Shown in pieces: positions 56,625 to 56,719 of a DNA stretch of 64,000 nt. Location: NCBI RefSeq assembly GCF_055900595.2, contig NZ_CM148325.1. One strand, written 5' to 3'. Position numbers and translations under genes: made by a program. Within the stretch, counting starts at the first letter, position 1; each line of letters begins with the position of its first letter. Below the pieces are notes generated by a model that was not told the origin of the DNA, made no database searches, and saw nothing but the letters and a program-made list of their open reading frames with translations.

Positions 56625-56694
56625 AGATGTTGTTCTGCCAATGTTATGCCGCTACACCCTCAACTTACGTTATCCCAACTTGTGACTGTTATTC

Positions 56695-56719
56695 GGCGCT
56701 CTATGGAGCGCCTTTTTTT
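56695..56719. terminator. Bidirectional terminator shared by convergent malG and psiE (ggcgctc-tatg-gagcgcc + T7)
   Basis: 7-bp GC stem followed by ttttttt; the T-run overlaps the psiE stop codon. Confidence 0.55.

Follow-up and report, generated by a model that had tools for sequence, protein, structure and literature searches.

Does a malG-psiE junction that has no xylE in it record the loss of a gene, or a site that never received one? The question is raised by a 64-kb stretch of Escherichia coli DNA (64,000 nucleotides, here called the window), in which malG and psiE are direct neighbours, whereas K-12 MG1655 has the order psiE - xylE - MalH/malG, with the gene of a xylose/proton symporter between them. 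A preliminary description of the window had noticed the adjacency, put the gap at about 93 bp and contrasted it with the K-12 order; reading frames, spacer and similarity searches confirm the adjacency, and the K-12 order is as given there. We argue, with a probability of about 85%, that the window carries the ancestral, never-occupied junction and that the K-12 state was derived from it by insertion.

Anatomy of the junction

The elements of the junction, in window coordinates, are as follows.

55734-56624, plus strand: malG coding sequence, maltose ABC transporter permease, 296 aa (ORF list, translation and annotation in NZ_CP098223.1)
56617-56719, plus strand: predicted equivalent of the K-12 MalH sRNA, covering the malG 3' end, the 3' UTR and the terminator (homology to b4807)
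56625-56717, no strand: malG-psiE intergenic spacer, exactly 93 bp (direct reading)
56695-56712, plus strand: intrinsic terminator hairpin of malG/MalH (terminator scan, RNA fold)
56713-56719, plus strand: T7 tract of the malG terminator, its last two bases lying within the psiE stop codon, 56718-56720
56718-57128, minus strand: psiE coding sequence, phosphate-starvation-inducible protein, 136 aa (translation, annotation in the near-identical genome)

The two genes converge on the 93 bp between them, and MalG of the window is identical to the annotated WP_001252058.1. The genome most similar to the window, Z0117EC0005 (NZ_CP098223.1; 99.98% over 13 kb), is annotated with the same two neighbours. 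Neither xylE nor any piece of it was found: with K-12 XylE as the tblastn query, the best E-value in the 64-kb window was 0.29, blastn of the 1,792-bp K-12 cassette against the same sequence gave nothing significant, and the spacer resembles none of the xylE cassettes of K-12, Citrobacter and Klebsiella oxytoca. Nor does the junction bear the scar of a gene loss, whether as remnants of the cassette, as an IS element or as a novel joint, and the earlier remark that a scar is lacking there stands.

Upstream of psiE, at 57228-57375, lies a cluster of REP/BIME-type palindromic repeats. Rfam naRNA4 matches the same interval on both strands below threshold, with 25.7-32.2 bits against a gathering score of 59.5, and in the near-identical genome a hypothetical ORF of 144 nt, which overlaps the repeats, is annotated at about 57274-57417.

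Terminator and MalH RNA in the spacer

The hairpin at the end of the spacer has a 7-bp stem, GGCGCTC/GAGCGCC (56695-56701/56706-56712), with six G-C pairs and the 4-nt loop TATG, and is conserved across genera of the Enterobacteriaceae. On the plus strand, it is the GC-rich hairpin followed by a U-tract of an intrinsic (Rho-independent) terminator for malG. On the minus strand, by contrast, the scan called no terminator for psiE, the hairpin being followed by GAAUAACAG rather than a U-tract; in K-12, the hairpin downstream of psiE is likewise without a U-tract. Of the terminator that malG and psiE had been supposed to share, only the malG half therefore holds, since the minus strand has no terminator-like site for psiE.

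On the evidence of homology, the spacer is more than a terminator and would be MalH, an sRNA derived from the 3' UTR. The K-12 annotation has the ncRNA malH (b4807) as 103 nt starting 7 nt inside malG and reaching as far as the terminator does; the corresponding segment of the window, 56617-56719, agrees with it at 100 of 103 positions and takes up the whole spacer. Of the three differences, one (56654) falls in the body and two (56702, 56704) in the loop of the hairpin. A conserved core (GCCACTGCA..CCCTCAAC, TTGTGACTGT and then the hairpin) is recognisable in most of the Enterobacteriaceae genera aligned; a scan of 55500-58000 with Rfam 15 placed neither MalH nor any other family over the spacer at E<=1. 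MalH has been described as a processed, Hfq-associated fragment of the malEFG 3' UTR that base-pairs with ompC and ompA, represses them and lowers MicA (PMC8081044). The gap between malG and psiE would thus be functional sequence, as it is predicted to encode this sRNA.

The K-12 cassette

The segment found only in K-12 measures 1,792 bp and consists of an upstream region of about 276 bp, xylE itself (1,476 bp) and the gene's own terminator. Aligned with K-12 by BLAST, the window has a single break at the junction, the malG side reaching to 56719 and the psiE side starting from 56715, with an overlap of five bases. The cassette begins directly after the T7 run behind the malG terminator hairpin and ends in the TTTTT behind the xylE terminator hairpin, which is fused to the psiE stop codon; in the window, the T-run of the malG terminator continues straight into that codon. 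BLAST breakpoints and boundary alignment place the insertion point within or just after the T7 run, ambiguous over the TTTTT at 56715-56719. Because both edges of the cassette lie in T-runs, forming a 5-bp microhomology, the sequence of the two states alone cannot tell insertion from a precise deletion.

One site, two alleles in E. coli

A 1-kb query spanning the junction found matches in 5,425 of 5,426 complete E. coli genomes. The junction is contiguous, and so free of xylE, in 1,786 of the 5,426 (33%), the type strain ATCC 11775 among them, and K-12 xylE is found in 3,638 (67%), a single match lying on a plasmid. Together, the two classes make up 5,424 of the 5,425 genomes that match, from which we conclude that they are two alleles of one site and not the product of relocation. 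The preliminary description had taken the missing gene for a strain-level indel; a state present in a third of the genomes and complementary to the presence of xylE is not that. Nor does the implied event in this particular strain survive, as E. albertii, E. whittamii, two further Escherichia and most Enterobacteriaceae sampled are empty at the same place.

In the xylE-positive E. coli examined (K-12, O157:H7, O26 and the Gambian isolate 100181), the boundaries and spacing of the cassette are identical, which is consistent with a single event. That some E. coli lineages have xylE and others do not is already documented as pan-genome variation: in a published reconstruction, xylE is one of the transporters given as enriched in the B1/A sublineage (PMC6896753), and that passing mention is the only explicit statement of its distribution by phylogroup that we found in the literature. 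The xylE-free junction is a known accessory-gene polymorphism and MalH has likewise been described, so that neither is new in kind.

Some xylE-positive genomes carry incomplete genes, 14 of the 3,638 having less than 80% of it. One E. coli, TOE17 (L092, 2501-3623), has an IS1-associated deletion that truncates xylE after 248 nt and takes psiE, yjbT and yjbHGFE, down to pgi, with IS1 at the joint.

The site in other Enterobacteriaceae

A scan based on PsiE, with one genome per species, gave 80 loci, of which 74 had both gene ends present and could be scored; E. fergusonii, E. marmotae and Salmonella are not among the 80. The scorable loci fall into four classes.

37 of 74 loci: malG-psiE gap of 81-123 bp
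23 of 74 loci: gap of 131-400 bp, no xylE ORF
9 of 74 loci: gap with xylE, in eight Citrobacter species genomes and K. oxytoca
5 of 74 loci: gap with other inserts

Essentially the junction of the window is also that of E. albertii, E. whittamii, Escherichia sp. E1V33 and MOD1-EC7003. Further out, the arrangement of a GC hairpin, a run of six to eight Ts and TTA (the psiE stop) is found in Enterobacter, Leclercia, Silvania, Pluralibacter and Trabulsiella as well as in Cedecea, Buttiauxella, Klebsiella and Raoultella. The xylE-bearing Citrobacter include C. werkmanii, C. youngae and C. gillenii.

To the left of the K. oxytoca insert, the sequence matches the empty site of K. michiganensis with 96% identity, and the match extends over terminator, T-run and the final 15 nt of psiE. 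This left-side copy of the psiE end, CTGAAACGCGAATAA, has its counterpart at the true end of the gene, CTGAAACGCGAGTAA, the two making a direct repeat with 14 of 15 positions identical. The duplicated psiE end and the preserved empty-site junction show that in this species the empty site came first and xylE was inserted into it. Between the repeat and the xylE upstream region, the locus (L068, 6397-8640) contains about 160 bp of additional DNA; in K. michiganensis and K. grimontii, its sister species, the site is empty.

We looked for a comparable trace in E. coli, a psiE remnant or homology to the K. oxytoca filler in the left 60 bp of its cassette, and rejected it, the local alignments being no better than those of shuffled sequences: 456 and 1,827 of 2,000 shuffles scored at least as high as the real ones, and for a global alignment with gaps, the outcome was marginal (26 of 1,000).

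The opposite process can also be seen. The spacer of C. braakii (L022, 6412-6797) is 382 bp long and holds three or four fragments of a xylE cassette, which derive from the region upstream of xylE, from its interior, from its 3' end and from its terminator; similarity to the cassette was found in no other xylE-free spacer of the species compared. C. braakii with its debris and TOE17 with its IS1 are what true secondary loss of xylE looks like.

Gain or loss

The same junction in the outgroups, taken together with the insertion footprint in K. oxytoca, is what one expects of a site that was ancestrally empty, and with K-12 as the derived, inserted state, no scar is to be expected at the junction of the window. 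In the course of events that we propose, the ancestral malG 3' UTR, MalH, would have ended in the terminator, its T-run passing straight into the convergent psiE stop; in part of the species, a xylE cassette of 1.79 kb would then have entered this T-run or the position directly behind it, with K-12, O157:H7 and O26 as recipients among the strains examined; and the lineage of the window, like ATCC 11775 and the other Escherichia species, would never have got it. We infer gain rather than loss within E. coli on grounds of parsimony, and a single gain is very probably a better explanation than many identical and precise losses. The base composition of the cassette gene also differs from its surroundings, GC3 of xylE being 54% against 63-67% in the flanking genes.

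The position of the window within the species matters here. Between 33000 and 64000, the window shares 95.9% identity with K-12 and 96.3% with ATCC 11775, against 97.3% between those two strains; in an alignment of malF, malG and psiE, the corresponding figures are 96.0-96.2% and 98.3%. The lower identities of the window place its lineage outside the K-12/ATCC 11775 pair in this region. The type strain is presumably a member of phylogroup B2. Sliding identity of the window to K-12 and ATCC 11775 shows no peak of divergence at the indel, and its uniform level of about 95-98% across the region gives no signal of local introgression.

The main competitor of an ancestrally empty site holds that the ancestor of the lineage had xylE and that microhomology-mediated illegitimate recombination deleted it precisely from one terminator T-run to the other. 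The anatomy of the K-12 locus would allow this, as 5 bp of TTTTT stand at both boundaries with a GC-rich hairpin before each, and the divergence of xylE between genera parallels that of core genes: nucleotide identity among E. coli, Citrobacter and K. oxytoca tracks malG, at 82-86%, which long vertical residence with many losses would produce as well. Yet the same exact event would have to be repeated in the Escherichia species and in dozens of genera, the real losses that we observe, in C. braakii and TOE17, are imprecise, the empty site of K. oxytoca is older than its insert, and the window lineage branches outside the K-12/B2 pair while the other Escherichia sampled are empty too. We therefore consider precise deletion unlikely. 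The comparison of xylE with malG and psiE identities between genera had been intended as a test for recent transfer and was set aside as uninformative, since xylE tracks malG even in K. oxytoca, a case of demonstrable gain.

A second alternative is that xylE resides elsewhere in this genome, of which only 64 kb were read. The complementary counts of the two alleles leave almost no room for genomes having both an empty junction and a xylE at another place, the collection as a whole gives a single match on a plasmid, and the window itself has no xylE-like sequence; these population counts, with the locus of the near-identical genome, argue that the strain has no xylE at all, and we regard a copy at another place as very improbable. 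That the adjacency is an artefact of assembly or collapse is hardly credible, as the same 1-kb junction occurs at 100% identity in eight independent complete genomes and contiguously in all 1,786, at a site with no collapse-prone repeats.

The lineage of the window

With only 17 of the 5,426 genomes at least 99% identical to the window at the junction, the strain is a member of a rare, deep-branching E. coli lineage; judged by these identities, it may possibly represent a group like the cryptic clades.

Other differences from the reference strains were seen in the window. At 46969-48549 (minus strand), there is an intact ORF of 526 aa, for which the annotation of the near-identical genome gives a SopA family protein. 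It is the counterpart of yjbI, a gene that in K-12 is a pseudogene and that ATCC 11775 lacks between malM and ubiC; over this interval, the identity to K-12 falls to 87%. At 37929-38933 (minus strand), a single DUF2713 ORF of 334 aa takes the place of yjbL and yjbM, which are two genes in K-12; the alignment with K-12 is interrupted at 37934-38445, and the segment is missing between zur and dusA in ATCC 11775.

Xylose uptake and significance

AraE and other sugar transporters also take up xylose, with low affinity. The expectation that XylFGH is left as the dedicated xylose transporter was a reasonable one: xylFGH is present in 5,419 of the 5,426 complete E. coli genomes, and in Z0117EC0005, the nearest complete genome, the xylAB-xylFGH-xylR genes are intact. 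Xylose uptake in this strain would then probably proceed through XylFGH.

What the locus corrects is an assumption centred on K-12. xylE belongs to the accessory genes, and a third of E. coli and the rest of the genus as sampled are without it by default; strain-specific metabolic models should not presume xylose uptake by proton symport.

The only mildly new point, and one of modest interest for studies of integration hotspots, is that the malG-psiE gap has been reused by different sugar cassettes across species. In one locus (L040, 6412-11147), the gap holds a maltose/glucose-type PTS IIBC, a nagB-like deaminase, a MalI/LacI-type regulator and a protein with a weak, below-cutoff match to beta-aspartyl-peptidase; in another (L058, 6412-8189), it holds a LysR regulator and a HAD phosphatase; and in C. 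sedlakii (L038, 4525-9400), psiE and xylE are separated by genes for a cellobiose-type PTS IIC(B), an oxidoreductase and a GntR regulator. In this respect, the gap behaves like a hotspot for the insertion of carbohydrate genes. In the three genera with xylE, the left boundaries of the insert differ and the right boundary is the same, the xylE terminator being fused to the psiE stop. We tentatively suggest, at somewhat less than even odds, that across Enterobacteriaceae sugar-uptake cassettes have been captured repeatedly where the malG T-run joins the psiE stop, and that xylE entered this joint by separate events in E. coli, the C. freundii complex and K. oxytoca, through recombination between very short homologies; the T-run or the last 15 nt of psiE could have provided these.

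Comparison with known systems

The locus of K-12 MG1655 (b4030-b4032, b4807) agrees with the window in its flanking genes, their orientation, the MalH 3' UTR and the terminator hairpin, and differs by the 1,792 extra bp between the T-run of the malG terminator and the psiE stop. Among the xylE-free relatives, ATCC 11775, E. albertii, E. whittamii and MOD1-EC7003 have spacers of 93-94 bp and, with E1V33, share the junction GGAGCGCC-T6-7-A(C/T)TCCCGC; the xylE-free junctions of ATCC 11775 and the other Escherichia differ from that of the window by point substitutions only. In the junction region, the window diverges by about 3-4% from ATCC 11775 and by 7-8% from E. albertii.

The insertion in K. 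oxytoca (L068) resembles that of E. coli in site, gene and orientation, and in the xylE terminator that abuts the psiE stop, but it has retained a footprint that E. coli is without, the 15-nt duplicate of the psiE 3' end and the filler of about 160 bp. More generally, chromosomal integration hotspots for accessory genes are a concept known in Enterobacteriaceae from pan-genome studies of E. coli. The malG-psiE site departs from them in that no integrase, tRNA or mobile-element signature was seen there, and the window shows it unoccupied; it resembles them in that different species carry different sugar-utilisation cassettes in the same short gap.
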